The position numbers and the translations under genes were made by a program. Under the pieces are notes generated by a model. The model was not told the origin of the DNA. It searched no databases and saw only the letters and a list, made by a program, of their open reading frames with translations. Positions 2,941 through 43,739 of a stretch of 64,000 nt of DNA are shown here, in pieces; the first letter of the stretch is position 1, and each line of letters begins with the position of its first letter. Source of the DNA: an uncultured Methanosarcinales archaeon (lineage in GTDB: Archaea > Nanobdellota > Nanobdellia > Woesearchaeales > GW2011-AR9); contig CAYJXA010000001.1 of assembly GCA_964373955.1 (NCBI GenBank), forward strand, positions 108,301 through 172,300, given 5' to 3'.

Positions 2941-4902
2941 CTACGCACAATTCTGCAAGTAATACGATAAAGCTGCTGTGCCTGCAGGAACCATAGTGGT
3001 TATATTTCTCTCTAAGAATGGACCTAATTCTTCTGGCGTACAAAAGAGAAGTTGTTCGTGTTCATAACGAGCCGGAGCATCTCTCCAGCGTTGCTCTAAC
3101 TCTGGTTTGCCAATACGAAGAGGTATTCCCATCACTAATTCCGGAACGCGAGAAGGCTGCTGGCGAATAAGACCATAAAATACGGGAACCCCCACACTAC
3201 TTCGATCTAAGCCCAATTTTTCTGCCAAAGCTTCCATTAAATAATCAAACGGATCAGGAGATCTATCTTCTCTCTTTTCAACATGGCAACCAAAGACGTG
3301 CACCGAGCCGGGATAATGATGGACTCTATCGCTGCGTAATCCCAATGGGATATAAATTTCCGTTCCAGGCGTTCGTCCTTCAGATTCCATACCATAAAGT
3401 ACTGCACAAATGCTTAAAGGACTGCCAAAATAGGAATCGGGATCAGCAGTATCTTCAAGTCCTGCATTGACCAACATATCTCGAAATTCCCGGTCGTGAA
3501 CCGCTAAATCATTCGTTCCTAACACATCACTATACGAAACGCTGTTAATTCCTAGATAAAGCGTAGTGCCTTGTAAAAATGCTCTTGACAATCGATGTTT
3601 CTGTCGCCCATCAATTTGACTAACAAGCTTTAATGCCTTTTGTTGATGCCCCTGGGCGAAGGCTTCCGCTAAATCTTCCTGGCGATGTGCTCTTACTCGA
3701 GCATCCGTTTGTTGCCAATATTCAACTGAACGCCGATAGAGTCCCGGATGTCGCGAGGCCAGCATACAGGGATCACCACCAGCAATTCTTATTTCTAATT
3801 TATCAAGAGAAATGGGTTTTTCTGGTTGAATTAATACTTCCCAGGGCCTTGCTACTCTCGGAGACGGAGAAACGGTTTCTGTAAGTACAATATCTGCAGC
3901 CACTCCTCGCCTCTGCGTAGAGGAAGATAACGGAGGAATTCGGTCCATCCAGTATTCAATCATCTCATCAAGCATACTTTCAAAAGTATACGTTGGTTTC
4001 CAGCCTAAAACCTGGCGCAGTTTAGCAGAATCCCCTTTAAGTACACGCAGTTCTTCACTGCGACACAAATTTGAATCAGTCTTGACAAATGCCTGATAAT
4101 CAAGACCAAGCTTTCCAAAAACATATTCACAGAGCTCTAAGACGGTATGACTTACGCCGGTTGCTACTACAAAATCATCTGGTTTGTCGTTTTGAAGCAT
4201 CAGCCACATAGCTTGTACAAAGTCGTGGGAATGACCCCAATCCCTAGCCGCATGCAAATTACCAAGCAAAAGTTCGGAGGACAAGCCGCGACTAATCTTA
4301 ACAGCTCCTTTTACAACTTTGTTGGTCACAAAATTAACCCCTCTTCGGGGGGACTCATGATTAAACGAAATTCCGTTGGACAAAAATAGGCCATACGATC
4401 TTCGATAATGTTGTATTAATTTGTGGGCATGGAGTTTGGCACAGCCATAAGGACTTACTGGTTCCATAGCAGTGGTTTCTCTTTGGAAGCCATCGGGATC
4501 TTGAGAGTTGCCAAACATTTCTGAGGAACTAGGATGAAAAAAACGGGCAGGCAAATTTAATTCTTTCATGAAATCAAGTAGCAGCATGGTTCCTTGCACG
4601 ATAGAGCTGCTGGTAAGCACAGGCATATCAAAGCTGGCACGCACATCCGTTTGAGCAGCTAAGTGGTAAATCTCATCGGGCTTGTATTTATGTAAAACAT
4701 GCAGCAGAGAAATTGGATCTTGTAGATCTGCGCGCTCAAGGGTGATACGACTAATTATAGCATCTAATCTCTCTGTATCAGTTTGGCTCACTGAGTAGTC
4801 GCGCTGGGCGATACCGATAACTCTGTATCCTTTATCAAGAAGAAAAGGTGCTAAGTAGCTCCCGTCTTGTCCGGTAATGCCGGTAATCAGCGCTTTTTTC
4901 AT
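2941..4902 (-). CDS. gmd: GDP-mannose 4,6-dehydratase (N-terminal ~340 aa) fused to an uncharacterised ~310-aa Arg-rich C-terminal domain
   Basis: N-terminus MKKALITGITGQDGSYLAPFLLDKGY.V.GI.RR, a Rossmann SDR fold matching Gmd. The single 653-aa ORF continues past the usual Gmd end into an unrelated domain. Confidence 0.75.
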   Translation of the reverse strand: MKKALITGITGQDGSYLAPFLLDKGYRVIGIAQRDYSVSQTDTERLDAIISRITLERADLQDPISLLHVLHKYKPDEIYHLAAQTDVRASFDMPVLTSSSIVQGTMLLLDFMKELNLPARFFHPSSSEMFGNSQDPDGFQRETTAMEPVSPYGCAKLHAHKLIQHYRRSYGLFLSNGISFNHESPRRGVNFVTNKVVKGAVKISRGLSSELLLGNLHAARDWGHSHDFVQAMWLMLQNDKPDDFVVATGVSHTVLELCEYVFGKLGLDYQAFVKTDSNLCRSEELRVLKGDSAKLRQVLGWKPTYTFESMLDEMIEYWMDRIPPLSSSTQRRGVAADIVLTETVSPSPRVARPWEVLIQPEKPISLDKLEIRIAGGDPCMLASRHPGLYRRSVEYWQQTDARVRAHRQEDLAEAFAQGHQQKALKLVSQIDGRQKHRLSRAFLQGTTLYLGINSVSYSDVLGTNDLAVHDREFRDMLVNAGLEDTADPDSYFGSPLSICAVLYGMESEGRTPGTEIYIPLGLRSDRVHHYPGSVHVFGCHVEKREDRSPDPFDYLMEALAEKLGLDRSSVGVPVFYGLIRQQPSRVPELVMGIPLRIGKPELEQRWRDAPARYEHEQLLFCTPEELGPFLERNITTMVPAGTAALSYYLQNCA

Positions 4903-6889: not shown

Positions 6890-9800
6890 TTAACATCCCC
6901 ACTCCGCTGGAACGCGCCAGGTTGTCAAGTTTGTAGTAGTATTATAACCCAAATTTGTAGCGTTCGCAGTTTTATTCACGCAGTTTCCAAGATTAGCATT
7001 ACACTGCCACAACACAGTTACGTTCCCTGGAATTCCAATTTCCAGTTTCTTCGGTCTGAAAGCGTTAATTAATTCCTGACACTTGGTATTTCCCAAGCCA
7101 ACAAAAGTCCCATTAGTGGTCGAATTAATTCCGATGTCACCTGTTCCAGGAGTAAAGTTTTGAGCACCGGTAGAAACTTTACCAGTAATGCTTGCATTAA
7201 CTAAAACCACTTTCCACTTGCTGCTATTCGAAGCGGTAGGATTTTCTATGACCAGATCGAAGCCTTTAGTCTGGCTGTAATTCAAGTTAACACCTGCGCT
7301 GCTATTCCCCGTAACATTATTTGTCGTCCCACCAGGTAACCTAAAAGTAAAGGTAATATTTCCCAGCGGATCAGTTGCTACCGCTCCCGAAGGGGGCGTG
7401 AAAGGGAACGTAAAAGTACTGGTACAAGTTTTACAGGTAGTTAACGTTCCTTTCGTCGTAAAATTGGAACAAGCGCTCACAGCACAATTACTACTGATAT
7501 CGCACACCGTTGTTTTGTAGTAATATACTGTTGCATTGTTCAATGTAGAGCCAACTTTATCTGGATTAAAATCAAAGTTATCAATAGAAGCATCGTGCCA
7601 GAGCCGATAATCTTGAAGCCCAGTATCAATAAGACCACTATCTCTTATAGTTTTATTTAATACCTTACAGGTGCTGTCGTTATTGTAAAAAGAGAGGGTT
7701 CCATTTGCCGGTTCATTAGTATCATAACTGATGAACGCTGAATCAATGAATGGATCCACCTGTGACCAGGTTATTTTTGGTGCTGTCTTATCATTCGCAT
7801 CAGCTTGTAAGACTCCGCCACAGAAATAGGAATCATAGCTGCAGCCAGCATCATCACAATCTGTTAGTCCGTCAGCATCGTTATCCACACTATCCTTACA
7901 CTGGAACCCAGCTTCATTGGGCACGAATCCAAACTTGAGGAAGCTGAAACAGTCCGGATCATTACTTGCGGTTATTCCATCCCCATCATTGTCTCCTCCA
8001 GTGTTAGAACAATCCTCAAACTTAAAGTCAAAAGAGCCGGGAGTATAGAAGTATGGTCCGGCAACATCCACCACAAAGCTATCGTTAGTGGTAATATTAC
8101 TTACAGTAGCATAGACGCGCATACTCTTGCTCTTATTGTAAAGAGACTTAAACTTGCTGAGCTCTACTTTGTCTATCCCGGCCATTCCTCCCCCAATCAA
8201 AGAACACATTTTTGCCCGATCCGAGGTAACCGGTATGGGAACTGCTCCCCAGCTGCCATTGAAACACTGGAAAGATGTTTTTATTTCTGCTAAGCTAGAG
8301 GTATAATTACCCTGATACTTAAATGAAAACTCAAACCCAGTTAAAGAACTATTATCCCGGGCAGCACAATTATTGGTCGCATTTCCATCGGTATCAAGAT
8401 ACCAAAGAAAGGTGTGATCCAAACTACCTGATCCGACACCGTTAGTTTTCAAAGGAATACTATTGCAAATTCCACTTCCAGTGAAATCCTGAATTACTGA
8501 TCCCAGCACTAAACGATCAAAGTCATCACGCAACCCTAACTGGCCTAAGTCATAATTATCACTTATTCCAGGTTGGTTGCCATCATCACCTAAGAATGTT
8601 GGTTCTATATTTCCCATGAACGTAACAAAGCCACCTTCTCCTTTGGGATCACAGAATCCAGAAACATTTTGGTTTTCTACGTTACTGGTTACATTATTAT
8701 TAAACCGACTATCTGTAAACCAGGTACAACTTGCATTCAAAGATCCCTCACATTTACTTTTATTCCCATCAGCACTAAAGCAATTTCCTCCAAAGGATTT
8801 AGGTTCACATAAGCCCGTAAGCTGTTCACATAACCCATTTGTTCCCGTCAGACAGGTAGCATTCGACCTCGTGAAACAAACAGGTTCACATTGTCCCAAA
8901 GAGTTATAAGTAGTACTCCAAGCACAGACTTGGGTAGATATGCCTCCAATAGTCACATTTGCTTCGCATGCTGCCTGGGAACTTCTTCGAGTAGCGTTGC
9001 CAAAACACTGTGAAAAGATAAGCGGCTCACACCAGCCCCCTCCACCAAAACCGCCGCCGAAACCTCCCCCCGTATTCCATCCGCAGCCCCTCGTTGTTTC
9101 GCACGCAGTTTGATTTTGGTTAGAGAAGCAATTATCTTCGGCAGTTGCATTTACTTCACAAGTACCGCCTGCTATAGAAATATAAGTACAGTCGGCAGTA
9201 TTGGAACAGCCCGTCTGATCAGTATCAAATTGCCAGCATTGTGCTCCCGGAAAGTCACAATGACCACCACTGGCTCCTCCAAAAGTACTTTCAAAATCAT
9301 CTTTCAGCCAGGCGCAGCCGTTAGAAGTACAGGTGGAATTACTGGTATAGCTGGGGCAGTTGCCAAATTTATCGTTTAAATCGTCCCCCCCGCAGAATTT
9401 GTCTGTAGCACAGTCTGCATCCGCACAGTCCGTTTTAGCGTCATTATCATTATCCTGTCCGTCAAAACAAACTTCCCCGGTAAAACCTACCGGTTCGCAA
9501 TAATAATTTACACTATCCCAGCTGCAAGATCCATTTCCCCCTTTTCCAGTGTTAATGCAGTCACTAGAGGAATAACAGCTGAAACAATCATTCCCACAGC
9601 GTTTCTCATTCTTGCCAAAACAATATCCCGCTCCGTTGGCAGCGCTAGTATCCGCTGCCCAAACACAGCCAGCAGTACTGTTCTCACACTTTGCCTGTGG
9701 TGCAGTTAAGAACTCACAAGCACCACATACATCATCACAATCTTTTCCTCCACCAATCACAAAAGCGTCTTTCGGAGTACACCACCCATACCCGTTAAAA

Positions 9801-22877: not shown

Positions 22878-22923
22878 TCAAAAATCAAAAAGTTTAAGTA
22901 CAAATATCTCTTTCTAATCCTTG

Positions 22924-23724
22924 ATGAAAGAAACCATTCTCAAATATGCTCTTAAAAATGCACTAGAGTTCCAGGGCAAAGTAAATCAAAATGTGGTGCT
23001 GGGATTAGTTTTAAGAGATCATCCAGAGCTTAAAAAAGATGTTCCCAAGGTTCGGCAAGAAATTGAAAAAGTCATTCTGGAGATTGGAAAACTAACCCTT
23101 GAAGAAAAAAAAGAGAAATTAGAACACCTTGCCCCGAATTTGCTTCAATCACCACCCGAAGAAACCGCCGAAGGACCATTAAAGCCGCTTCCCAAGGCAG
23201 AGAAAGGAGCGGTAAAAGTAAGAATCGCTCCTTCACCGAGCGGAGCGCTTCATATAGGGCATGCGTATGGAGCTTCTTTAAATTACGAATATAGTAAGAT
23301 GTATCAGGGAAAACTCATCCTGCGGATTGAAGATACCAATCCCGAAAATATCTATGAGCCCGCATATAAATTAATCGAGGAAGATCTGCGATGGTTAACG
23401 GAGAATAACGTGGCGGAAGTGCAGGTGCAATCTTCTCGCTTAGGGATTTATTACGATTATGCAGAAAAATTAATTCGCGACGGAAAAGCATATGTGTGCA
23501 CCTGCAATGCGGAAGTTTGGCGGGAGATGAAAAACCATGGTAAAGCCTGCTCTTGTCGAGAACTCCCCACTAAAGAACAGCACGTACGCTATGCGAAAAT
23601 GTTTAGCGGCTATGCAGAAGGGGAGGCGGTACTACGATTAAAAACAAATATCCAAGACAAGACTCCGGCGAGGCGGGATATAGGCATTATGCGTATTGTT
23701 GATCATGTTAATCCAAAGACATGA
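22924..23724 (+). CDS. gltX: Glutamyl-tRNA synthetase, N-terminal part (HIGH region), terminated by an in-frame TGA
   Basis: VRIAPSPSGALHIGHAYGASLNYEYS...LRIEDTNPEN class I Glu/Gln-RS signature. Ends ..RIVDHVNPKT then TGA. Confidence 0.7.
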   Translation: MKETILKYALKNALEFQGKVNQNVVLGLVLRDHPELKKDVPKVRQEIEKVILEIGKLTLEEKKEKLEHLAPNLLQSPPEETAEGPLKPLPKAEKGAVKVRIAPSPSGALHIGHAYGASLNYEYSKMYQGKLILRIEDTNPENIYEPAYKLIEEDLRWLTENNVAEVQVQSSRLGIYYDYAEKLIRDGKAYVCTCNAEVWREMKNHGKACSCRELPTKEQHVRYAKMFSGYAEGEAVLRLKTNIQDKTPARRDIGIMRIVDHVNPKT

Positions 23725-23748
23725 AAGCAACAGAAACTTTGGCCTTTT

Positions 23749-24624
23749 ATGGTTTTTTCAGTTGCAGTAGATGACCATGAACTGGGGGTTACTCACGTCT
23801 TAAATGGGAAAGATCAAGCAGATAATGCCGTGAAGGAGCGCTTGATTATGGAATTTTTGGGGTGGAAAGCACCGGAGTATAAACATTGGGGCATGATTAA
23901 TTTTGAAGGGTTTATCTTAAGCACTACTCAAACCAGGAAAGCCATCGAGCAAGGAGAATACAAAGGATGGGATGATATTCGCCTACCCTTTCTTCCTGCA
24001 TTGCGTAAAAGGGGTTACCAGCCGGGAGCTTTCCGCCGTTACGCTGTAGAAATCGGACTCAGCCTAAATGACAAGACCGTAAGTAAAGAAGAATTTTGGA
24101 AAAATATTAATGCCTTCAACAAAGAGATTGTAGATCCCCTTGCAAATAGATATTTCTTTATTGACGATCCCGTAGGAATAGTCATCGAAGGTTGCCAGAA
24201 AAAAAGTGTTGAGCTGGAATTGCATCCTGATTTTCCTTCGCGGGGAAAAAGAACTTTTCTTACTGATGAGAAATTTTACATTAGCATGCACGATTTTAAA
24301 AGACTGGGAGAAGGGTATATTCACCGTTTGATGGATTGTTGCAATTTTGAATTGCGGAAAAATAAATTATATTACCTTTCACAGAGTTATGAAGAATACA
24401 AAAATGCAACGAGGAAAGGACATATCATTCATTGGTTGCCTCACGCCGCTAAGAATGTTCAGATGGAAGTGCTTCAAGAGAATGGGTTAACTACCGCCGG
24501 ATTGGGTGAGGAGCGGTTAGCACAGTTGAAGGAAGGAGAAATAGTCCAGTTGGAACGGCGTTATTTTGCGCGGGTAGTGAGGAAAGAGAAAGAGAAGGTT
24601 ATCTTTTGGTATCTGCACAAGTAA
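23749..24624 (+). CDS. gltX: Glutamyl-tRNA synthetase, C-terminal part (same reading frame as 22924..23724)
   Basis: Begins MVFSVAVDDHELGVTHVLNGKDQ. This is the conserved AVDDH..GITHV block that follows the HPRTG-DKY.VWP segment, so the TGA sits exactly where the conserved Gly is expected. Confidence 0.7.
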   Translation: MVFSVAVDDHELGVTHVLNGKDQADNAVKERLIMEFLGWKAPEYKHWGMINFEGFILSTTQTRKAIEQGEYKGWDDIRLPFLPALRKRGYQPGAFRRYAVEIGLSLNDKTVSKEEFWKNINAFNKEIVDPLANRYFFIDDPVGIVIEGCQKKSVELELHPDFPSRGKRTFLTDEKFYISMHDFKRLGEGYIHRLMDCCNFELRKNKLYYLSQSYEEYKNATRKGHIIHWLPHAAKNVQMEVLQENGLTTAGLGEERLAQLKEGEIVQLERRYFARVVRKEKEKVIFWYLHK

Positions 24625-28053: not shown

Positions 28054-31000
28054 CTATTGCTTTTCTTTTCCAAGCTCTTTATTCAATTTCTCTAATTCTC
28101 CCTCAACCTGCAACAATCTTTTTTTCAGAGAAACTGACTCGCTGAGGGAAGACTTTGGACGAGAAATTCTTTCTGCTTCTTTCGCTTTCCGAGCACTATC
28201 AGCAGGCCCCAATCCGGCGATAGTTTCTTCGATTTGTCCTAGTTTTCGATTTAAGAATCTCTTTCGCTCTAGCGAGTCAACTCGGGAGGAAATATTCTCA
28301 TGGGAAGCAGGAGGTAAAAACTCTGGGGGTAGCTGTCCCGCTCTGAGCATACCGAAAGGGGGTTTTGGCGGTACCACTGTACCCGCTTCTGGCTGGTACT
28401 CCAATGATTTAAGATTTTTGTTAATCTGGTCATACTCTTCCTGTAGTTCTACCTGCTGCTTCTTTCCCCAAGCTGAAGGAAGAGTGACGCTAATGCTTGG
28501 TGCGGTCTTCTCAACTTCTTTCTTCCGTTCTCTGGTTTGGATAAAAGCTTTATATTTTCGATATTCTTCCCGCATCAAAATGGAAGTCAGGAAGAGCAAA
28601 GGTAAAAAGATAAGGAGAGCAATTAATCCTACCCAATACGAACTATACTGCAACGCCCTCCCTTTAAACTGTTGGAAGAATGCGCCCCCAACTAGAGCTC
28701 TTGCTTTAGGAGGCACAACTTCAGGGGCAACTACTACCGGAAGAGGTGCTGCCGCCATCACTTCGATCTGACGATGACTGGTAATGTGATAATCTCCATA
28801 CGTTAATTCAATAGTAAGAGTATACTGCCCTGGCTCAAGATCAGAAGGCACAAAGAGAGTTGCATTTTCTATTTCCTCCCTGCCGCTTTGAATAAAAATA
28901 ACATCTTTCCCCTCGGTTTTTATTACCCCCTCTTTCTCCAGGGTGAAATCCAAAACGACGTCTCCGGAAATATTGCTTACCGCTTTCATTAAATATCTCA
29001 CCATGATATTTTCCCCAGCCGGTACCGGAGAGGTAACATCAAGTATCCTTAGGTCAAAGAGTTTTACACAGGAGTGTTGAATGCACACTTCATCAGTACT
29101 ACATTGATCATCAGTGATACATTCATACTCTATGCATTGGTTATTGAAACAATATTGATCTGCTTCACAATCAGCATCGGTGGTGCATTCTACTTTTGGT
29201 TTACTTGCTCCACCTCCGCCGCCTCCACCCCCCGTTACCGCTTCGCTTTCCGTTGTAATCGTTTCACTGGCAGTAAAACTGCTGAAACTGGAAGTATTAA
29301 AAGTGAGTGTTCCGCTGCTGTAACTGATAAGAGTACAACCTGAGCCAAGACAATCAGATCCGCTTATCTCGCTAGCGCTTGATCTAAAGAGTGGATCCTT
29401 AGTCACCCCCGTAACTGAACTAAAAGTAAGCCCTTGAAGAATGATTGTTCCTGTCCGATTTAGGCCTACGAACGCAGAAGTATTAAAAGCGAAAAAATTA
29501 TCTGCAATGATGAGGTTCTTTCCATGCCCCAGCTCAAAGGGAAGACTGATATTAGAGATATTTGTCCATTGCACTGAACCAAAACTATTGTTATATTTCA
29601 TAGTTTGGGCGCAGGCAGATCCGGTAAAGAGAAGAGTAGTATTCTCAAACTGGTTATCCACAAAAGTGTTATTGCAAGAGTTCTCAACTGCTACTCCGGA
29701 AGTTATATTTCTCGTTTCCCGCACTTGTAAAGAGAGAGGATAGGTATATCCGCTACTAACATTAAAACTGGAGTTAAACAGGGCAGTAAGATTATCAATA
29801 TAATTAGAGGAATTGCCATTAGCTATTAAAGCATTAGTGATGTAAAAATCACAAATAGATCCGGGGAGATTAGTGACAACATTACTACAATTAGTTAATC
29901 CGTTAGTATCAGCAGAATCTTTCCGAAGAAAGATGGTCTGGTTAGAAGGAGTTGATCCTGAACTAGAATTAAGAAAACCAAGAATAAGATTAAAATTGTT
30001 ACTGCCATCCGCCATAATGATGGTGGTGTTATCTGCAGAAACATTAACGGAGCCGCCGCCGCCGGTGTACCTTAGGCTGCCATTATAAATCACCCCATTA
30101 TACGTCAAAGGCGAATAGGAGCTTCTAAAAGATATGATAGAAGATATTCGACTGCTATCATTGATAATATTACTCTCTAGATAGGAATGGTTAGAAAGAT
30201 TAAGAAGTACCGCCTGAACCCCCTCTTCATAAATAAGATTCCCCGTGAGATTTGCTTGGCTGCTGTTGAAAATTTGTATAGCCCAAGCAACATTAGAGTG
30301 TAAAACAGTATCAGTAATAATGCTCTTGCTGGTGTTATCAACAGAAATTCCCTGGGTATTCGTTGTAAAGGTGCTATTGCTTACTGTTACATTATTAGTA
30401 TTAGATTCAAAAACCCCCAGAGAAAAATTACTGATGAATATATTTTTAACAGTGACATTATTTACATCACTTATATTTACTCCTAACCCTACGCCATTGC
30501 CGATAATCGCATACCCTGCACCATCAATGATAATATTACTTCTCAGAACGGTAAAACAGGTTCCAGAGGAGGTAATATTTCTCGTTAAAGTAACGCTGGA
30601 GTTAACAGAGCCACACAATGTGTCAAGAGCCGCAAAACTGCTAAAAGAGGTAGTATTAAAGAGAAGTACTTGGCTAACATTATCAAAACTAAAAATAGTG
30701 CAGGAAGTGCCATTACAATTGGTTCCGCTGGTTCTTATTTCATTGGCATTAGTATTAAAAGTCTCCAATCTTCGGATATTGACCACTTCACTAAAACCAA
30801 GCCCCCTAAGAGTAATATTTGCGCTGGAGTTAATTCTTCCAGAGGTGAAAGCGGAAGTATTTACCGCAAGGGTATTATTTCCAATAAAGATATTCCTACC
30901 TACACCGATACCATTAGAATTATTAACATCTAAAGTTAAATCCCGAAGGAAACTACCCGTACCATTATCAATCCATTCGATCCCTCCAAAAGAGTTATTG

Positions 31001-34000
31001 TAAATAAGATAGTTACTGACATTAGCAGCACTATCGTCAGAAATTTCCACAGACCCATTAGAACTGATATTAATGTTGACGAAATAATTATTTCTTATAC
31101 AGTCTCCACTAGTGCAATCTCCCAGCGAAAAAGAGTTAAGGAAGAGAGCGCTAGACGTGCCAAAGTGAGTAATATTTTCATCTGTAAAAGTGTTGTTCTC
31201 AACTACTCCCTGCCCCTGAAGATCATAGGATATGCCCAGGCTGCCCCCCCCGGAATAGAAACGATTAGAAGAAAAATTCATAGTATCCACTCCAGCTATG
31301 AGCACGGTGCTCCCAAAAGCAGCAAAATCTATCAGGGTATTAGAGAAGAAAATTCCCCCGGACACATTACGTAAAATTATTCCCCCCTGGTTACTGTTAT
31401 TAGTTCTATTCACGTAATTTCCAGTGATATTAAAGCTTTTTGATTGAAATGAAATATTAGTATTAATTGCCGTCCCCGAAGAATTTAATTCAAAGAAGTT
31501 GTTAGCGATGGTCGTATGATTAGAGTTTTGTACAAAAAGAAGATCGAGACCTGATCTGGTTCGTGTTACTAAGGTCATATTGGTAATATTAGTACCGTTC
31601 GAATTCTGAACACGAATGTTAGTAGTGAAATTATTCAGCGTGAAATTAAAAAGAGTAATATTGTTAAAACCATTAATAGTTACTCCCGTCCCCGAGCCAT
31701 TACTGTAAACGGAATGGCCAGAACCATTGATGAAGAGGTTAGAATTATTAATAATAAAACAGTCCCCGGTACTACTTAAATCATGATTTAAGGTAAAACT
31801 AGCGGTTACCCTCCCACAGAAATTACTGATGGTAAGATTTCTTGTTTCAGAAACTGCAGAAGTTCCCCCGTCACTACAGTTAATAGACCAGTGGTATTCC
31901 CCATTGAGAAGAGAAGCATTAGCAGTTATACTAGTAGCGGTTGCATTTCGGGTAGAACTATTTCGGCCATAAGGGGCTGTAACCCCCTCGCTATTGTTCA
32001 AATAAAGAGTACAGTCTAAAGTTCCCTGTTGCGCTAGATCATCCGTGACATTAAAAGCAAAACGAGGAGTACTATTAGTATTGTTCAAAGTGTTATTGGG
32101 AGGAGATAAAAGGGAGATAGTAGGAGAACTGTTATCAGCGGTGACGGCAGTGAAACTGCCAAAAGAAGTCATGTTAAAGAGAAGAACTTGAGAGGCATTA
32201 TCAAAACTCAAAATAAGACAGGATGTTCCATTACAATATTCCCCTCCAGTTTTAATTTCATCGATATTCGTGCTAAACGTTTCTAACCGCTGGATGTTAG
32301 CTACGGAATTAAATCCTAAACCGACTAGGGTAAGATTGGCGCTAGAATTAATTCTTCCTGACGTAAAAGCAGACGTGTTAATGGTAACGCTATTATTACG
32401 AATAAAGAAACTCCTCTCTAATCCTATCCCCAAAGCATTACCAACCTGAAGATCTAAATCATCCAGGAAACTATTGTTAGTCCATTGAATTTTACCAAAG
32501 GAGTTGTTATATACAAAAGAATTGAGGTTAGAGTTTCCTGATTGATCATCTATTTCAGAAGTACTAGCGCTGGAGATATTATTATTTCGAAGAGTATTGT
32601 TGGCGGCACTAGCTTGGATAATAATACTTCTAACGGTATCAGTAGTGAAGTTATTCTCCACAAGCGTGTTTCGAGAGGCGTTCTGTCCAAGATTAACCAA
32701 CCCTCTTATAATATTAGACGAGATGTTGTTATCGCTGGAAGATTCACCGGTAGTAGTAATAAAGTTGAAATCAAGAGCAATACCGTCTCCCAAGCTGGTG
32801 ATATTATTAAAGTCTACAATACTAAAACTAGAGTTGACAAAATAAAGACTGCTGCTGTTAGTGGTAACAATTCTATTAAAACTAATGTTGTGGGACAGCG
32901 CATGTTGGGCTAGGATTCCCTCGGCTGCATTTCCAGTCGTATTAACATTATTAAAAATGATGGTGTTGTTTCTTTCACCCGGATTGATTAATATCCCTAC
33001 CGCTCCTAATCCCGAAGTGATAACCGTATTAGATTGCAGACGATTGGAAGAAACAGCAATGTCCAACCCATAAGAATTATTTCCTGAAGTCACCACTTTA
33101 TTTGAATCGATAACCAGGAGGGTTGAGGTGAGTGATCTTATTCCAGGTGACGAGTTAGTAAAAGTAGTGACATTATTTCTGCTGATGTTAGACCGGTTCG
33201 CGCTGGAGAAACTAATTCCTATACTGCCTGTGCTTGCATTGCCAGAAATAATGGTGTTATTCCAGATGGTGTGATTGACGGAGTCTCTTACATCTATTAC
33301 GGTGGAAAAGTTAACCGCGATTAGGTTTCGAACGGTGAGATTATTGAATCCAATTGCTAAAACTGCCGAGCCAGATCCATCTCCCGTTATGGTAAATCCC
33401 GCACCCTCAATCAGGATGTTAGAAGCGTTGACGATAAAGCACGTGCCATCAGTACTGATATTATTGTTAATAGTGACATCATTATTAATAGTGCCGCATT
33501 GAGTTACATTGCTTCCCGAAGTAGCGGAATAATTACTAAATGAAGCAACTGTCGCAGTTAAGATTCCCGTAGTAGAATCATAGGAAGCGATAGTGCAGAG
33601 AGTATTATCGTTATCACACCTCACCCCATCTTTCAATAAGAATGGCTGGGTAGAGTAAGTTAAATTTTTTATGTCTATACGGGCGGATCTATTAAGGTTA
33701 AGCGACTGAGCTGTGTCGAGAATACCCGTGAGATTTTGCTGTAAAAAGATAGTTTGTCCAAGCACTAAACTCATATTGGTAGTGAGATTTTCCCTGGTCC
33801 AGTTTATCATCCCAAAAGAATTATTGTAAATGAGCGTGTTGTTAGTCTCTAAGCCACTCAGATCATAAATACTAAAATTTACTACGGCATTGATGGTATT
33901 ATTCCGGAAAGTATTGTTATAGGTGCTAACATCACTTATCTCTATAGTGGCCAAGGTGGAATTGCCAGTAATATTGTTAGCGATAAAAGAGTTATTACTA

Positions 34001-37000
34001 TTATTGATGAGCAGAAGACCATAACTATTCCAGCCAATGATAGTATTAGATGCGATTATCCCCCCGCGGGTGTTCAACATATACAATCCTGGTGCTATTG
34101 TCCCGGACGTGTTCATATAATTCTGGGAGATGTTAGTCCTATTTGCAAAATTTCTAAGTTCTATTGACGCGCTAGCATTGGCAATAGTACTGAGAGTATT
34201 ATTAAAGAGTACACCGTCAAGAGCGCTGTCCCACCAGATTGCGTCTTTGTTAGAGGAAGTATCCGCCTGTTCAACCATCAGGCAGTTTTTAATGGTGACG
34301 TTATGAAAGCCGGTGTTATTAACTCCCTTTCCCTCTGCACTGGAAGAACCATACCTAATAACATTTCCAGTACAATTAATGAAAATGTTGGATGCGTTTA
34401 TAATGAAACAAGTGTTCTCCGCGCTTACATTCTGGTTGAGAGTAAAATTTCTATTGACATACCCACAACTAGCAATGTCCGCAGCAAAACTGCTAAACGA
34501 AGTAGTATTGAAACGCAAGATGCCGGTGTTTACATTATAATTAAAGACAAGGCAAGAATTGCTGCTGATACAATCAGTTCCTGCTCTGATCACGGTAGTA
34601 CTATTCTCATCATACTCTTCCAAACGACGGATACTTTCAACCCTGCTGACATTAAGGGCATAGAGGGTAAGATTCGCGCTGGAGTTTATTCTCCCCGATA
34701 CAAATGCGGAAGTATTAACGGTGATAATATTCTGCCCAATGAAAATATTTCTACCTAATCCAATCCCCAGACTATTATTAGCATTCAAGGTTAAATCCTG
34801 CTGAAAGCTCGTATTCGTCCATCGGATCTCCCCAAAGGTGTTGTTATAAATGAGATAATTTACCAAACCTGCTGATGACGAATCAGAAATCTCAGTGTTA
34901 TTTGACGTAAAGTTATTGTTTAAGAAGGTATTATTTTCAGAAGTGCTTAAAATTGACAACACCGTCGATTTACTCGAATTAAGGGAATTGTAATCGAAGA
35001 GGTTATAGCTGCCATTAACTAGGTTAATAGCAAGGTTAGGGCCAGAGCCAGTCGTATTGATGATGTTAGAACTAACATTATTATAGTTAGAAGTCCTTAA
35101 ACCAAGACCAGTAGAACCATTCCCGATAGAAAACAGAGTATTAGAAAGTAGGATATTGCCCTCTGAAAAGTTGAGCAGGATTCCATGAGAATTGGTAGCA
35201 TTAATAGTGAGGGTGCTGGTGTTAATCACAGAACTATTTGTGTCTTGAAAAACGATACCTGGTCTTTCTCCATCCCCCGCTGCGGTTTCGATAGTGACAT
35301 TAGAGATGGTAATATTAAACCCAGCAGTGATATGAATCCCTTCTGAAAAATTGTTGAGAGCAATATTCCTAATAGTAATATTCCTAAAGCCTGAACTGTT
35401 GATTCCAAACCCGCTTCCGGTTCCCGTGAGTACATACCCGGCACCATTAATCAGGATATTGGAAGCATTAATAGTTAAACAAGTTCCCGTAAAGGTTGTA
35501 TTTTGAGTTAAAGTGAGATTCCCATTGACCGTTCCACAAATGGAAGACCCGTTTCCCAAGGCAGCAAAACTGCTAAAAGAAGTAGTATTAAACCGCAAAG
35601 TACTATCTGCTCCCATACTAAACACGGTACAACTACTCCCCAGGCAATCCACCCCATTGTTAGAAATATTGGTAGAATTCGTATCATAAGCAGGAACTTT
35701 CAGAATAGAATTTATCGCCGTAAAGTTCAAACCAAAGACGGTTATGTTAGCTGTTCCGTTAATCCAGCTGCTCCCGAACGTAGAAGTATTTAACGCAATA
35801 ACATTGCTCCCTATAAAAAGATTCCTTGCTAAACCAATACCCTCACTGCTTGCAACAGAAAGTGTTAGGTTCCGAGTGAAGCTCCTTGTTCCATTATCAA
35901 TCCATTTTATCTCACCAAAAGAGTTATTATAGATGAGATAATTACTGACATTGGTAGCACTATTATCCTGTATCTCCTGGGACCCATTTGTGCTTATATT
36001 CACATTAATGAAATAATTATTTCTCACGCAATCCCCACCGGAACATTCTCCTTGCGAGAAAGAATTAAGAAAAACGGCGCTTTGAGTTCCAAAACTAGTA
36101 ATGTTGTCATTGGTGAAAGTGTTATTTTCCACAACGCCCATCCCTTGAAATCCAAAGGCGGTTGACAAGCTCCCTCCCCCAACGTATACTTTGTTAGAAG
36201 AAAAATTACTGTTAGTAACTCCCATTAAAAGAATCGCCGTTCCACCACTTCCAAAATCGAAGAGGGTATTGGAATTGAAATTCAAGCCAGTGATGTTTCC
36301 CAGATTGAATCCCCCCTGATTAGAATTATTTGTTCTATTAACGTAATTATTAGTAATGTTTAAATCGGTATTTAGAAAAAGAATGTTAGTATTAAGGGTC
36401 ATGGAAGAGGTATTCTGCTCAAAATAATTATTAACAATAGTGGTATGGTTTACATTTTGTAAGCTTATCAAAGCTTGCGTATTAGTTATGCGAGATAGAA
36501 AAGTAACGTTAGTGATATTAGTACCATTAGAATCCTGGACATAAATTTGTTGCGAGAAATTGTAAATAGTGAGATTAAAGATGGTAATATTATTGAAACC
36601 AGTGATATTAATTCCCACGCCAGAACCATTGCTAATAAGGGAATAACCAGAACCATTGAGAAATATGTCTGAACCATTAATGATAAAGCAGTGCGTATCC
36701 GCAACAATATTCTGAGTAAGAGTATAAACTCCGCGAGCAGTAAGATTAGCACAAGTTGATTGCAGGACCGTAGGGATGATGTATCCTGTGGGTGAAATGA
36801 TATTTGAAGGGTTATTCTCTGTTACTATTTCAACTGAAGCCCCAGTAATACTGTTTCCTGTTCCAAGGAAGGAATCCAGTGTAGTCACAATTATTTCTTT
36901 TTCGGAAAAAAAATGTCCCGGAATAGTATCAAAAACCAGAGTGGTAGTTGGCTCACTGACCAATAAGACAAAAATAAAAGAAATCATTCCTGCAAGCAAG

Positions 37001-37062
37001 AAATATTCTTTAGTCTCGTTCAGTGAATTCCTTTTCCAGTTTTTTCTCTCTCCTGATTTCAT
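28054..37062 (-). CDS. Giant (3002 aa) surface protein: N-terminal signal/anchor, multiple N-glycosylation-rich parallel beta-helix repeat modules, Cys-rich knot, C-terminal TM helix and cytoplasmic coiled-coil tail
   Basis: Uninterrupted 9 kb ORF. Asn/Thr/Ser-rich with hundreds of N-x-S/T sequons. The recurring TSFSSFAA motif marks about 6 modules. GGGGGGGG linker, CTTDADCEADQYCFNNQCIEYEC knot, then a TM (WVGLIALLIFLPLLFLTSILM) and a K/E-rich tail. Confidence 0.8.
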   Translation of the reverse strand: MKSGERKNWKRNSLNETKEYFLLAGMISFIFVLLVSEPTTTLVFDTIPGHFFSEKEIIVTTLDSFLGTGNSITGASVEIVTENNPSNIISPTGYIIPTVLQSTCANLTARGVYTLTQNIVADTHCFIINGSDIFLNGSGYSLISNGSGVGINITGFNNITIFNLTIYNFSQQIYVQDSNGTNITNVTFLSRITNTQALISLQNVNHTTIVNNYFEQNTSSMTLNTNILFLNTDLNITNNYVNRTNNSNQGGFNLGNITGLNFNSNTLFDFGSGGTAILLMGVTNSNFSSNKVYVGGGSLSTAFGFQGMGVVENNTFTNDNITSFGTQSAVFLNSFSQGECSGGDCVRNNYFINVNISTNGSQEIQDNSATNVSNYLIYNNSFGEIKWIDNGTRSFTRNLTLSVASSEGIGLARNLFIGSNVIALNTSTFGSSWINGTANITVFGLNFTAINSILKVPAYDTNSTNISNNGVDCLGSSCTVFSMGADSTLRFNTTSFSSFAALGNGSSICGTVNGNLTLTQNTTFTGTCLTINASNILINGAGYVLTGTGSGFGINSSGFRNITIRNIALNNFSEGIHITAGFNITISNVTIETAAGDGERPGIVFQDTNSSVINTSTLTINATNSHGILLNFSEGNILLSNTLFSIGNGSTGLGLRTSNYNNVSSNIINTTGSGPNLAINLVNGSYNLFDYNSLNSSKSTVLSILSTSENNTFLNNNFTSNNTEISDSSSAGLVNYLIYNNTFGEIRWTNTSFQQDLTLNANNSLGIGLGRNIFIGQNIITVNTSAFVSGRINSSANLTLYALNVSRVESIRRLEEYDENSTTVIRAGTDCISSNSCLVFNYNVNTGILRFNTTSFSSFAADIASCGYVNRNFTLNQNVSAENTCFIINASNIFINCTGNVIRYGSSSAEGKGVNNTGFHNVTIKNCLMVEQADTSSNKDAIWWDSALDGVLFNNTLSTIANASASIELRNFANRTNISQNYMNTSGTIAPGLYMLNTRGGIIASNTIIGWNSYGLLLINNSNNSFIANNITGNSTLATIEISDVSTYNNTFRNNTINAVVNFSIYDLSGLETNNTLIYNNSFGMINWTRENLTTNMSLVLGQTIFLQQNLTGILDTAQSLNLNRSARIDIKNLTYSTQPFLLKDGVRCDNDNTLCTIASYDSTTGILTATVASFSNYSATSGSNVTQCGTINNDVTINNNISTDGTCFIVNASNILIEGAGFTITGDGSGSAVLAIGFNNLTVRNLIAVNFSTVIDVRDSVNHTIWNNTIISGNASTGSIGISFSSANRSNISRNNVTTFTNSSPGIRSLTSTLLVIDSNKVVTSGNNSYGLDIAVSSNRLQSNTVITSGLGAVGILINPGERNNTIIFNNVNTTGNAAEGILAQHALSHNISFNRIVTTNSSSLYFVNSSFSIVDFNNITSLGDGIALDFNFITTTGESSSDNNISSNIIRGLVNLGQNASRNTLVENNFTTDTVRSIIIQASAANNTLRNNNISSASTSEIDDQSGNSNLNSFVYNNSFGKIQWTNNSFLDDLDLQVGNALGIGLERSFFIRNNSVTINTSAFTSGRINSSANLTLVGLGFNSVANIQRLETFSTNIDEIKTGGEYCNGTSCLILSFDNASQVLLFNMTSFGSFTAVTADNSSPTISLLSPPNNTLNNTNSTPRFAFNVTDDLAQQGTLDCTLYLNNSEGVTAPYGRNSSTRNATATSITANASLLNGEYHWSINCSDGGTSAVSETRNLTISNFCGRVTASFTLNHDLSSTGDCFIINNSNLFINGSGHSVYSNGSGTGVTINGFNNITLFNFTLNNFTTNIRVQNSNGTNITNMTLVTRTRSGLDLLFVQNSNHTTIANNFFELNSSGTAINTNISFQSKSFNITGNYVNRTNNSNQGGIILRNVSGGIFFSNTLIDFAAFGSTVLIAGVDTMNFSSNRFYSGGGSLGISYDLQGQGVVENNTFTDENITHFGTSSALFLNSFSLGDCTSGDCIRNNYFVNINISSNGSVEISDDSAANVSNYLIYNNSFGGIEWIDNGTGSFLRDLTLDVNNSNGIGVGRNIFIGNNTLAVNTSAFTSGRINSSANITLRGLGFSEVVNIRRLETFNTNANEIRTSGTNCNGTSCTIFSFDNVSQVLLFNTTSFSSFAALDTLCGSVNSSVTLTRNITSSGTCFTVLRSNIIIDGAGYAIIGNGVGLGVNISDVNNVTVKNIFISNFSLGVFESNTNNVTVSNSTFTTNTQGISVDNTSKSIITDTVLHSNVAWAIQIFNSSQANLTGNLIYEEGVQAVLLNLSNHSYLESNIINDSSRISSIISFRSSYSPLTYNGVIYNGSLRYTGGGGSVNVSADNTTIIMADGSNNFNLILGFLNSSSGSTPSNQTIFLRKDSADTNGLTNCSNVVTNLPGSICDFYITNALIANGNSSNYIDNLTALFNSSFNVSSGYTYPLSLQVRETRNITSGVAVENSCNNTFVDNQFENTTLLFTGSACAQTMKYNNSFGSVQWTNISNISLPFELGHGKNLIIADNFFAFNTSAFVGLNRTGTIILQGLTFSSVTGVTKDPLFRSSASEISGSDCLGSGCTLISYSSGTLTFNTSSFSSFTASETITTESEAVTGGGGGGGGASKPKVECTTDADCEADQYCFNNQCIEYECITDDQCSTDEVCIQHSCVKLFDLRILDVTSPVPAGENIMVRYLMKAVSNISGDVVLDFTLEKEGVIKTEGKDVIFIQSGREEIENATLFVPSDLEPGQYTLTIELTYGDYHITSHRQIEVMAAAPLPVVVAPEVVPPKARALVGGAFFQQFKGRALQYSSYWVGLIALLIFLPLLFLTSILMREEYRKYKAFIQTRERKKEVEKTAPSISVTLPSAWGKKQQVELQEEYDQINKNLKSLEYQPEAGTVVPPKPPFGMLRAGQLPPEFLPPASHENISSRVDSLERKRFLNRKLGQIEETIAGLGPADSARKAKEAERISRPKSSLSESVSLKKRLLQVEGELEKLNKELGKEKQ
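30250..36780 (-). repeat. Internal large segmental repeats within the giant gene (for example about 0.9 kb at 35.9-36.8 kb, about 70% identical at protein level to 30.25-31.2 kb)
   Basis: Protein segments FIINGSDIFLNGSGYSLISNGSGVGINITGFNNITIFNLT... and FIINNSNLFINGSGHSVYSNGSGTGVTINGFNNITLFNFT... align over about 300 aa. Confidence 0.5.
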
Positions 37063-37931: not shown

Positions 37932-38717
37932 ATGTGGATATATGATTTAAACCCCGTATTGGTACAGCTCGGCCCATTGCAAATACGATGGTACGGGTTG
38001 GTGTACGTTTTAGGATTTTTTGCAGCAATATGGTGGCTTCATCAAGCACAAAAAAGGGGGAAACTTTCTCTTGCCCCAGATGAAATATGGGATTTGATAT
38101 TTTACCTTATGGTGGGAGTAATTATTGGCTCCCGCCTTTTTATGATATTTTGGAATCCAGAAATATATCTCTACCATCCAATAAACCTCTTTAAAATCTG
38201 GGAAGGAGGAATGAGTTTCCATGGCGGTTTTGTAGGAATAATTACCGCTTGCTGGATTTATTGTAAAAGAAAGCGATTAGATTTTTGGCGGATAGCTGAT
38301 ATCATTTCTATTCCGGCGATGCTGGCCCTGGCGTTAGGAAGAATCGCCAATTTTATTAATGGGGAATTAGTCGGCAGGGTTTGGAATGGACGTTGGTGCG
38401 TAGTATTCCCAGAGTATGGCCAGGAATGCAGACACCCCAACATGATTTATTCTGCTCTACAGCGGTTAACGGTATTTAGTTGGCTCTGGTTCCTCAGCAT
38501 AAGAGATCGGTTTGCTCCGGGATTTATTTTCTGGAACTTCGTCTTTTGGGAAGGAGTAGGCCGATTTTTGATGGATTTTTTCCGGGAAGATAGCCTTTAC
38601 GTTGGGCTTAGCTTGGGGCAATGGTTTAGCCTCGCGATGATTATAGTAGCATTGGGGGTATTCTGGAAGAGATACAGAGAAGACTGGAAAGGGATGTTTT
38701 CTCCACAAAGTTCTTAA
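37932..38717 (+). CDS. lgt: Prolipoprotein diacylglyceryl transferase (bacterial-type Lgt)
   Basis: LGPLQIRWYGLVY, IWEGGMSFHGGFVG and GRIANFINGELVGR match Lgt signatures (HWYGLMY, VWDGGMSFHGG, GRLGNFINGELWGR). Confidence 0.8.
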   Translation: MWIYDLNPVLVQLGPLQIRWYGLVYVLGFFAAIWWLHQAQKRGKLSLAPDEIWDLIFYLMVGVIIGSRLFMIFWNPEIYLYHPINLFKIWEGGMSFHGGFVGIITACWIYCKRKRLDFWRIADIISIPAMLALALGRIANFINGELVGRVWNGRWCVVFPEYGQECRHPNMIYSALQRLTVFSWLWFLSIRDRFAPGFIFWNFVFWEGVGRFLMDFFREDSLYVGLSLGQWFSLAMIIVALGVFWKRYREDWKGMFSPQSS

Positions 38718-43190: not shown

Positions 43191-43739
43191 ATGGTAGACA
43201 GTTTCCCTCCCGGAGCTGAAGGAGAAGCAGAAAGATTAGAGCGAGAAGCATGCTGTGGTGATATTTCCAAACTTTTAGAACCTTACAAACTTCCCTGCTG
43301 CATACTTTTTTTAGGCATGAGTCTGGCGGGTGAAGTACTACGATCCTGCGAAGAGAGGAAAAGATCTCAAACAACATTTTCTTTACAGCAAGTGCTGGTT
43401 GACCAGATTGAATGGTACCAGCAAGAAATATCCCCTGAACTTCATCAAAGACTGGGCGTAGAGCGTATCTGCCGATATGAACCCAGCTGTTCAGCCTACG
43501 CAAAAGAAGCTATCATCAAAAATGGTGCTCTTCTGGGATCTTTACAGGCGGGAAGAAGATTACTTCGCTGTAACCCTTTAAGTCTAGGGGGGTATGACCC
43601 AATAACTTTAAACGAAACCAGGGAACACTTTAAAATGATGATAAAAGTTTACCAAAATGAAGGATGGTACGCAGCCCTACATTACGATTATGAACGAACT
43701 AAAACCTCTTGGTCAGAAAAATTATCGTTGAGATCATGA
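43191..43739 (+). CDS. YidD-like (membrane protein insertion efficiency factor / PF01809) domain protein with N-terminal extension
   Basis: CRYEPSCSAYAKEAIIKNGALLGSLQAGRRLLRCNPLSLGGYDP matches the YidD signature C.F.PSCS.YA..A....G...G......R..RC.P...GG.DP. Confidence 0.6.
   Translation: MVDSFPPGAEGEAERLEREACCGDISKLLEPYKLPCCILFLGMSLAGEVLRSCEERKRSQTTFSLQQVLVDQIEWYQQEISPELHQRLGVERICRYEPSCSAYAKEAIIKNGALLGSLQAGRRLLRCNPLSLGGYDPITLNETREHFKMMIKVYQNEGWYAALHYDYERTKTSWSEKLSLRS

Follow-up and report, generated by a model that had tools for sequence, protein, structure and literature searches.

Human NUDT22 is a Mg2+-dependent pyrophosphatase of uridine diphosphate (UDP)-glucose and UDP-galactose, assigned in humans to a Nudix subfamily called 'unique', in which a nucleotide-binding N-terminal domain is followed by the Nudix domain. 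It hydrolyses UDP-glucose to uridine monophosphate (UMP) and glucose-1-phosphate (PMC10101856), and it is an outlier of the human NUDIX family that 'lacks a conventional NUDIX box' (PMC5688067). Regarding Nudix genes associated with guanosine diphosphate (GDP) sugars, wcaH is located beside gmd in the colanic-acid operon and is a proposed regulator of the GDP-mannose pool (PMC10037897). The gene analysed here lies at 2941..4902 on the minus strand of a 64,000-nucleotide stretch of archaeal DNA (contig CAYJXA010000001.1, positions 108,301 to 172,300; the whole stretch is called the window), and its product is a single polypeptide composed of an intact short-form GDP-mannose 4,6-dehydratase (Gmd), a flexible linker and a two-domain NUDT22-type module. 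Both halves belong to known kinds, and their identity can be regarded as practically certain; what is new is their combination, together with a consistent remodelling of the Nudix site. A search of the accessible literature found no description of a Gmd-Nudix fusion or of prokaryotic NUDT22-like proteins.

In the mechanical list of open reading frames (ORFs), the fusion ORF runs uninterrupted from an ATG start to the stop codon at 2941-2943, encoding 653 amino acids, and the protein is identical to an NCBI entry (P0139) from a 298-kb contig. Following the minus strand, the Gmd domain corresponds to residues 1-322 (3937..4902) and is joined by an inter-domain linker without homology, residues ~323-350 (PPLSSSTQRRGVAADIVLTETVSPSPRVARP; 3853..3936), to the N-terminal subdomain of the module, residues ~351-494 (3421..3852), which has beta strands and a long helical insert, and then to the Nudix-fold subdomain, residues ~495-653 (2944..3420), recognised by the NUDT22 profile match and two fold searches. 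The N-terminal domain of NUDT22 binds the nucleotide moiety, its counterpart being the N-terminal subdomain of the module. An in-frame codon-usage coding signal spans the whole ORF, including the full C-terminal ~330 amino acids, and the ORF list and the codon-usage check revealed neither a competing long ORF nor a frame switch in the junction region. V334, encoded by GTG, was also weighed as an alternative start codon inside the ORF and rejected, as the purine-rich stretch abuts the GTG without a spacer, being an unconvincing ribosome-binding site. The original prediction described the C-terminal domain as Arg/His-rich and of locally higher GC. The arginine part of this description stands (8.8% versus 5.6%) and the histidine part does not (3.2% versus 3.7%), and the GC difference is negligible (0.448 versus 0.433), with a lower GC content at third codon positions (0.315 versus 0.388).

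Regarding the Gmd half, residues 1-322 match Pfam PF16363 over the complete model (positions 1-332 of 332; E = 1.3e-103, 347 bits for a cut-off of 27), and the top sequence matches in the PDB are MUR1 of Arabidopsis thaliana (1n7g, 8e-83) and the Pseudomonas aeruginosa enzyme (1rpn, 1.5e-82). The Gmd motifs GITGQDG, SSSEMFG, SPYGCAK and NHESPRR start at residues 8, 125, 150 and 181, respectively, and the GxxGxxG cofactor motif, the catalytic Ser/Thr-x-Glu and the YxxxK of extended short-chain dehydrogenases/reductases (SDRs) are all present. The score against NCBIfam TIGR01472 (321 bits) is under the equivalog cut-off of 415, a value in line with an archaeal short form that has diverged. Elsewhere, Gmd is a frequent fusion partner, as seen in the long Gmd proteins of the databases (P0141-P0257), where it is joined to a second SDR (Fcl/Rmd-like), a GNAT acetyltransferase (PF00583) or a DegT-type aminotransferase (PF01041), and some of these proteins are split by inteins (PF14890/PF07591/PF14528). 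The other long Gmd matches (616-783 amino acids) were considered as candidate Nudix fusions, and a hidden Markov model (HMM) screen found the module only in P0139 and P0140.

The C-terminal part was at first described as an unknown domain, and as a single sequence it does appear so: the ~330 amino acids have no match in Pfam, NCBIfam or the PDB, a Pfam scan of residues 335-653 gives no glycosyltransferase (GT), epimerase, NUDIX or Hexose_dehydrat match, and a word-indexed homolog search with the module alone found nothing, the same kind of search with the family profile returning solely P0022. No relatives came from a single-protein scan of GTDB genomes, nor from scanning JGI metagenomes with the alignment of the fusions. 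An exhaustive search was needed to find relatives of the module: HMMER, run against 1.84 billion representatives, yielded 138 cluster representatives at E<=1e-3. Among them are about 20 close stand-alone proteins of ~300 amino acids each, several in nucleotide-sugar contexts, so that the Rosetta-stone check proposed in the original prediction was positive, as well as a second protein of 646 amino acids (P0002). The tail is formed by bacterial-looking proteins of ~260-280 and ~490-510 amino acids matching the C-terminal ~130 residues only, some with borderline Pfam NUDIX matches.

When the close-family profile is compared to the PDB, human NUDT22 is the sole significant match (E=6e-23 and 1e-21, profile positions 85-296). 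The structure prediction that had been recommended for this domain gave a confident AlphaFold model with a 126-sequence alignment, with a predicted local distance difference test (pLDDT) of 94.2 and a predicted template modelling score (pTM) of 0.91 for the module, low pLDDT values being seen in the first block, at the linker; a single sequence gives an unusable model (pLDDT 33). The six best Foldseek matches of the module model are NUDT22 (E ~1e-17, TM <=0.77), the next match being at 2.5e-7, and all significant structural matches in two fold searches are Nudix folds, with NrtR, AraR, TIRR and NadM-Nudix among the neighbours. The module has the Nudix alpha/beta/alpha fold and a NUDT22-like two-domain architecture, with a unique N-terminal domain and a Nudix domain bearing a long box insertion, and it does not belong to WcaH/NudD, which are small single-domain Nudix proteins of WcaH-like sequence. 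Thus, by profile match, model and fold searches, the 'unknown' domain is a two-domain NUDT22-type Nudix fold, member of a prokaryotic NUDT22-like family. The transferase or epimerase-like function first suggested for it finds no basis in these structural matches or in Pfam, and the predicted fold excludes such an identity.

The domain was also said to have no obvious motif, and yet the stretch quoted to illustrate it (HVFGCHVEKRED...LMEALAEKLGL) is the Nudix box of the family in a degenerate form, located at residues 538-565 (GCHVEKREDRSPDPFDYLMEALAEKLGL; 3208..3291, minus strand). By column counts on 126 family sequences, later extended to the fourth fusion, the family-wide pattern is GG..E...[R/K]E-[LIV]-x-EE-x-G-[LIV], and the window box, GCHVEKRED...MEALAEKLGL, departs from the canonical GX5EX7REUXEEXGU and its metal-binding glutamates. 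At position 562 (3217-3219, minus strand), the second Glu of 'EE', present in 121/121 other sequences, is Lys in 4/4 fusions. The Glu of 'RE' at position 558 (118/122 others) is replaced by A/A/Q/I, being A558 in the window protein (3229-3231, minus strand), and the second Gly of GG at position 539 (119/123 others) by C/T/T/S, with C539 in the window. Upstream of the box, position 529 (3316..3318, minus strand) is I/V in the nine closest stand-alone homologs and E/Y/F/I elsewhere, compared to His in all four fusions. K562 and H529 are then invariant in the fusions and absent from their nearest stand-alone relatives, and every other strongly conserved position is kept (W396, R437, N464, R523, S524, H535, G538, E561, P587, E588, E614, H615 and P639).

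The NUDT22-like acidic box residues ([R/K]E-L-x-EE; QEICDE in NUDT22) are thus absent from the four fusions and present in the stand-alone relatives. In the family profile alignment, from which the catalytic residues of NUDT22 are also read, the two lost glutamates align to acidic residues of QEICDE, and H529 aligns with the Glu of another NUDT22 segment (QVAEAPG). A profile built from the fusions only still has NUDT22 as its sole PDB match, with the alignment ending exactly at the start of the box. In the predicted structure, the altered residues are placed on helix 206-218 of the module, the Nudix helix. A separate, unfused subclade (P0027, P0029 and P0081) also has a degenerate box, with GT for GG and KE for EE; therefore, the box has been eroded more than once in the NUDT22-like family.

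The joining of Gmd to this C-terminal domain is genuine, as it is found in four divergent full-length fusions from independent archaeal assemblies (DPANN/Pacearchaeota-type), comprising two NCBI metagenome-assembled genomes (MAGs), one third-party annotation (TPA) MAG and three Logan assemblies of the Sequence Read Archive (SRA). Besides the window protein, these are P0002 (646 amino acids), found in a 'Candidatus Pacearchaeota archaeon' groundwater MAG and as an identical protein in three independent SRA assemblies; P0140 (616 amino acids), from another NCBI MAG; and P0003 (659 amino acids), from the TPA MAG (locus L014, CAYOKQ010000020.1). A frameshift or stop separating two genes, against which the original prediction had warned, is excluded by this recurrence and by the uninterrupted in-frame ORF. 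It was considered whether P0003 could be a Nudix protein with a mere Gmd remnant, and this was rejected, as its frame runs on as Gmd to an adapter-like contig start and the full 659 amino acids are present in L014. The MAG of that locus is labelled 'uncultured Methanosarcinales archaeon', its relatives are of Pacearchaeota/DPANN type, and the label may be unreliable.

Across the four fusions, the linkers have 24-37 amino acids of unconserved sequence, and the module identity among the lineages is 31-43%. For the window protein and P0003, the identity is 38% in the module versus 70% in the Gmd half, and by this measure the Gmd half is the slower-evolving of the two. Apart from that pair (70%), the Gmd halves of the fusions resemble one another no more than they resemble stand-alone Gmds, and the fusion may have originated in one event or in several. 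The neighbours across the loci include a tRNA-splicing endonuclease, a Mre11-like phosphoesterase, aIF5B and the ribosomal proteins S6e/L7Ae, and these genes show that the genomes of all these loci are archaeal.

The stand-alone relatives, which keep the acidic Nudix-box residues, tend to adjoin nucleotide-sugar genes. The closest of them, P0001, is found in a glycosylation cluster with STT3/AglB, GT1/GT4 transferases, NTP_transferase, a hexose 2,3-dehydratase and two Gmd-family SDRs, and P0005 is followed 37 bp downstream by a sugar-1-phosphate nucleotidylyltransferase (NTP_transferase) in three assemblies. Regarding the P0001 locus (L005, 6308-7906 and 14609-15529), a 209-amino-acid Hexose_dehydrat protein and a 306-amino-acid canonical NUDIX protein adjoin P0001; nucleoside diphosphate (NDP)-hexose 2,3-dehydratase is itself a Nudix-fold family, and the cluster thus has three Nudix-type genes together. 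P0010 and P0022 adjoin GlmS. When synteny is judged by Pfam families and protein lengths, P0010 has as neighbours Metallophos (407 amino acids), PGK (397) and a YGR210-type GTPase (399), with equivalents of 410, 400 and 399 amino acids at the window fusion, and aIF5B and a PUA-methyltransferase adjoin P0012 as well as the fusions P0002 and P0140. Because of this positional synteny between stand-alone relatives and fusions, these loci seem to be a regular site of the NUDT22-like gene, which occurs there alone or attached to Gmd. In the 64-kb window, no glycosyltransferase or further gene of a GDP-sugar pathway was found. In P0035, P0037 and about 30 other bacterial-looking relatives of ~450-570 amino acids, the NUDT22-like module stands at the C-terminus of a longer protein, whose N-terminal region looks like a zinc ribbon and transmembrane segments (e.g., CPECDYNLRG...CPWCG in P0037). 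Such an arrangement would anchor a nucleotide-sugar Nudix protein to the membrane.

The best explanation overall, to which a probability of about 0.55 is assigned, is that Gmd carries at its C-terminus a non-canonical Nudix module that binds a GDP-sugar and either is regulatory or works by altered chemistry. In the Gmd-fused clade, the active site would have been remodelled by the loss of two of the three metal-ligand glutamates, one of them exchanged for the invariant Lys, by the loss of the GG turn and by the gain of the invariant His, keeping the remaining conserved pocket. Because the pocket is conserved and the two glutamates are lost, the module probably binds a nucleotide sugar and is not a canonical pyrophosphatase. 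Given the Gmd partner, the ligand would be a GDP-hexose, namely GDP-mannose, GDP-4-keto-6-deoxymannose or the end-product of the pathway. That the module no longer runs the canonical multi-Mg2+ pyrophosphatase reaction is the firmer part of this reading and can be considered probable. The more specific proposal, which is the favoured one but is put forward tentatively, is that the module would be a pseudo-Nudix sensor appended to Gmd, regulating it or handling its substrate, and would thereby couple the activity of Gmd to the pool of GDP-sugars in the small genomes of DPANN-type archaea. There is precedent in NrtR, AraR and TIRR, Nudix domains that have become non-hydrolytic binders of ligands or proteins.

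Some observations weigh against a GDP-sugar-binding module without hydrolysis. The invariant Lys and His could equally mark a new catalytic mechanism instead of a loss, and a single metal ion might still be bound by the retained E561, E588 and E614. GDP-mannose mannosyl hydrolase (GDPMH) is reportedly active without two of the box glutamates, according to the work of Legler and Mildvan. In addition, the monophyly of the fused clade has modest support: in a neighbour-joining tree of three fusions (P0140 having been found afterwards), the window protein, P0002 and P0003 group with a bootstrap of 60%, falling to 30% without the diagnostic columns.

The main rival, which is still judged unlikely, is an active bifunctional enzyme, in which the C-terminal module would be a GDP-sugar hydrolase of altered, metal-poor chemistry, analogous to WcaH/Gmm. 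His529 would then act as a general base and Lys562 would take the place of a metal in neutralising the diphosphate, the fusion providing the Gmd pathway with an integral 'safety valve', as the WcaH/Gmm counterpart limits the pool of GDP-mannose or GDP-6-deoxyhexose. The clade-specific invariance of K562 and H529 suggests selection for a new function over decay, the three acidic residues named above are retained, and homology to NUDT22 suggests that the stand-alone relatives are NDP-sugar hydrolases. The linkage of a Nudix hydrolase to gmd is also known from wcaH (PMC10037897). However, the module falls outside the GDPMH family, with which it has only the generic Nudix fold in common, its sequence and architecture being NUDT22-like, and its pattern of lost glutamates is unlike that of GDPMH, as judged from a comparison of box sequences. 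The much faster evolution of the module than of the Gmd half would be seen more typically in a domain that is relaxed or has no catalytic role, and without tight control it would be costly for an enzyme to carry a hydrolase that breaks down its own substrate or product.

A bolder version of a catalytic module, regarded as improbable, is a neofunctionalised NUDT22-type domain that would have exchanged Mg2+/Glu chemistry for a metal-poor mechanism with Lys562 and His529, acting directly on GDP-4-keto-6-deoxymannose and forming with Gmd a channelled two-step pathway, not described before, by which DPANN archaea with reduced genomes would supply or salvage 6-deoxyhexose. Its outcome may be the release of a 4-keto-6-deoxy sugar or a sugar-1-phosphate, or a non-hydrolytic transformation. 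A second biosynthetic step in the spirit of the original prediction would be provided if the module were a non-hydrolytic catalyst, for example of dehydratase or isomerase type, acting on the Gmd product. Nudix-fold NDP-hexose 2,3-dehydratases and isopentenyl diphosphate (IPP) isomerase are such non-hydrolytic Nudix-fold catalysts, other long Gmd proteins are fused to genuine downstream enzymes (second SDR, DegT aminotransferase, GNAT), a Hexose_dehydrat gene directly adjoins P0001, and the site is remodelled with a new His and Lys. Nevertheless, there is no Pfam Hexose_dehydrat signal in the module and no hint of a transferase or epimerase fold; NUDT22-fold relatives hydrolyse nucleotide sugars, and the canonical catalytic glutamates have been lost in the fusion, so that a biosynthetic second step is quite doubtful.

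Given little more than a slight chance is the idea that the module lost its function after a chance fusion and is now the decaying remainder of a hydrolase that was once active: the loss of catalytic glutamates, the divergence of the module relative to the Gmd half and the rarity of the architecture (four clusters only) agree with it, but the frame has stayed open over its full length in four lineages with a module identity of just 31-43%, the fold prediction is confident (pLDDT 94), and thirteen other conserved family residues are retained together with the identical clade-specific Lys and His. A sequencing or assembly artefact joining gmd to a separate Nudix gene, conceivable a priori since at least one other suspicious break exists in the window (the in-frame TGA of the GluRS-like gene described below), can practically be set aside, as the same architecture is seen in four divergent proteins of independent source with in-frame linkers differing in sequence and length, and the junction has neither an alternative long ORF nor a frame switch.

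Besides the fusion gene, the window encodes two giant predicted surface proteins on the minus strand, one of 1351 amino acids with 7% Cys (6890-10945) and other of 3002 amino acids (28054-37062). The richness in N-glycosylation sequons ascribed to the nearby surface proteins holds for both, with 3.6 and 6.7 N-X-S/T per 100 amino acids, respectively, about twice the composition expectation, an excess which is consistent with heavy N-glycosylation. At 22921-24624 (plus strand), a class-I Glu/Gln-tRNA synthetase is interrupted by one in-frame TGA at 23722-23724 (...HVNPKT*KQQKLW...), which leaves two ORFs in the same frame, 22921-23724 and 23749-24624, the other genes of the window being normal with table 11; the TGA could stem from an error in sequencing, from a gene that is truly split or from recoding at this site. 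Two further genes on the plus strand, a bacterial-type prolipoprotein diacylglyceryl transferase, Lgt (37932-38717; PF01790, 1.8e-68), and a YidD-like protein (43191-43739), may reflect horizontal acquisition, the genome being otherwise archaeal in appearance (EndA, Mre11-like, ABCE1/RLI and endonuclease dU).

With these results, the 'unknown 310-aa domain' becomes a testable object that public annotation omits, P0002 being annotated solely as 'GDP-mannose 4,6-dehydratase' and the window protein having no product name. The NUDT22 fold is extended to a sizeable prokaryotic family (the 138 cluster representatives) linked to nucleotide-sugar genes. In addition, the exchange of Glu for Lys and the gain of a His in the Gmd-tied Nudix domain of one archaeal clade constitute a natural experiment, relevant to the ways in which Nudix hydrolases turn into sensors or gain new chemistry. 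If the module regulates Gmd, it would offer a compact control of the 6-deoxyhexose supply for sequon-rich surface proteins in tiny DPANN genomes. The case is clean and testable, yet rare, with four clusters, and of niche scope.

Compared to described systems, the Gmd half resembles the P. aeruginosa enzyme (1RPN) and MUR1 (1N7G) over the full length, with NADP-binding and catalytic motifs intact, and differs in the C-terminal extension of ~330 amino acids. WcaH/Gmm/NudD from the colanic-acid operon of E. coli has in common with the module the Nudix fold and the functional and genetic coupling to Gmd, and it also acts on GDP-sugars with a Nudix box lacking some canonical glutamates; however, it is a single-domain protein of ~160 amino acids from another Nudix subfamily, encoded by a separate gene and without the NUDT22-type N-domain. 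NadM-Nudix, a nicotinamide mononucleotide (NMN) adenylyltransferase/ADP-ribose pyrophosphatase, likewise has a Nudix domain fused to an enzyme of nucleotide metabolism, and NrtR, AraR and TIRR are likewise Nudix domains without hydrolysis serving as ligand- or protein-binding modules, but they all belong to other Nudix subfamilies, with other partners and ligands, and none has Gmd or the NUDT22 architecture. The closest counterpart is human NUDT22 (5LF9, 5LOR, 5LOU), with the same succession of nucleotide-binding N-terminal domain and Nudix domain, the long insertion in the box loop and many pocket residues in common (R523, the H535/G538 region, E588 and E614). The archaeal module differs from it by a sequence identity of only ~18-20%, by the extra helical insert in the N-subdomain and the fusion to Gmd, and by having A558 and K562 where NUDT22 has the acidic residues of its box (QEICDE); from the fusion partner, a specificity for GDP- over UDP-sugars would also be expected.

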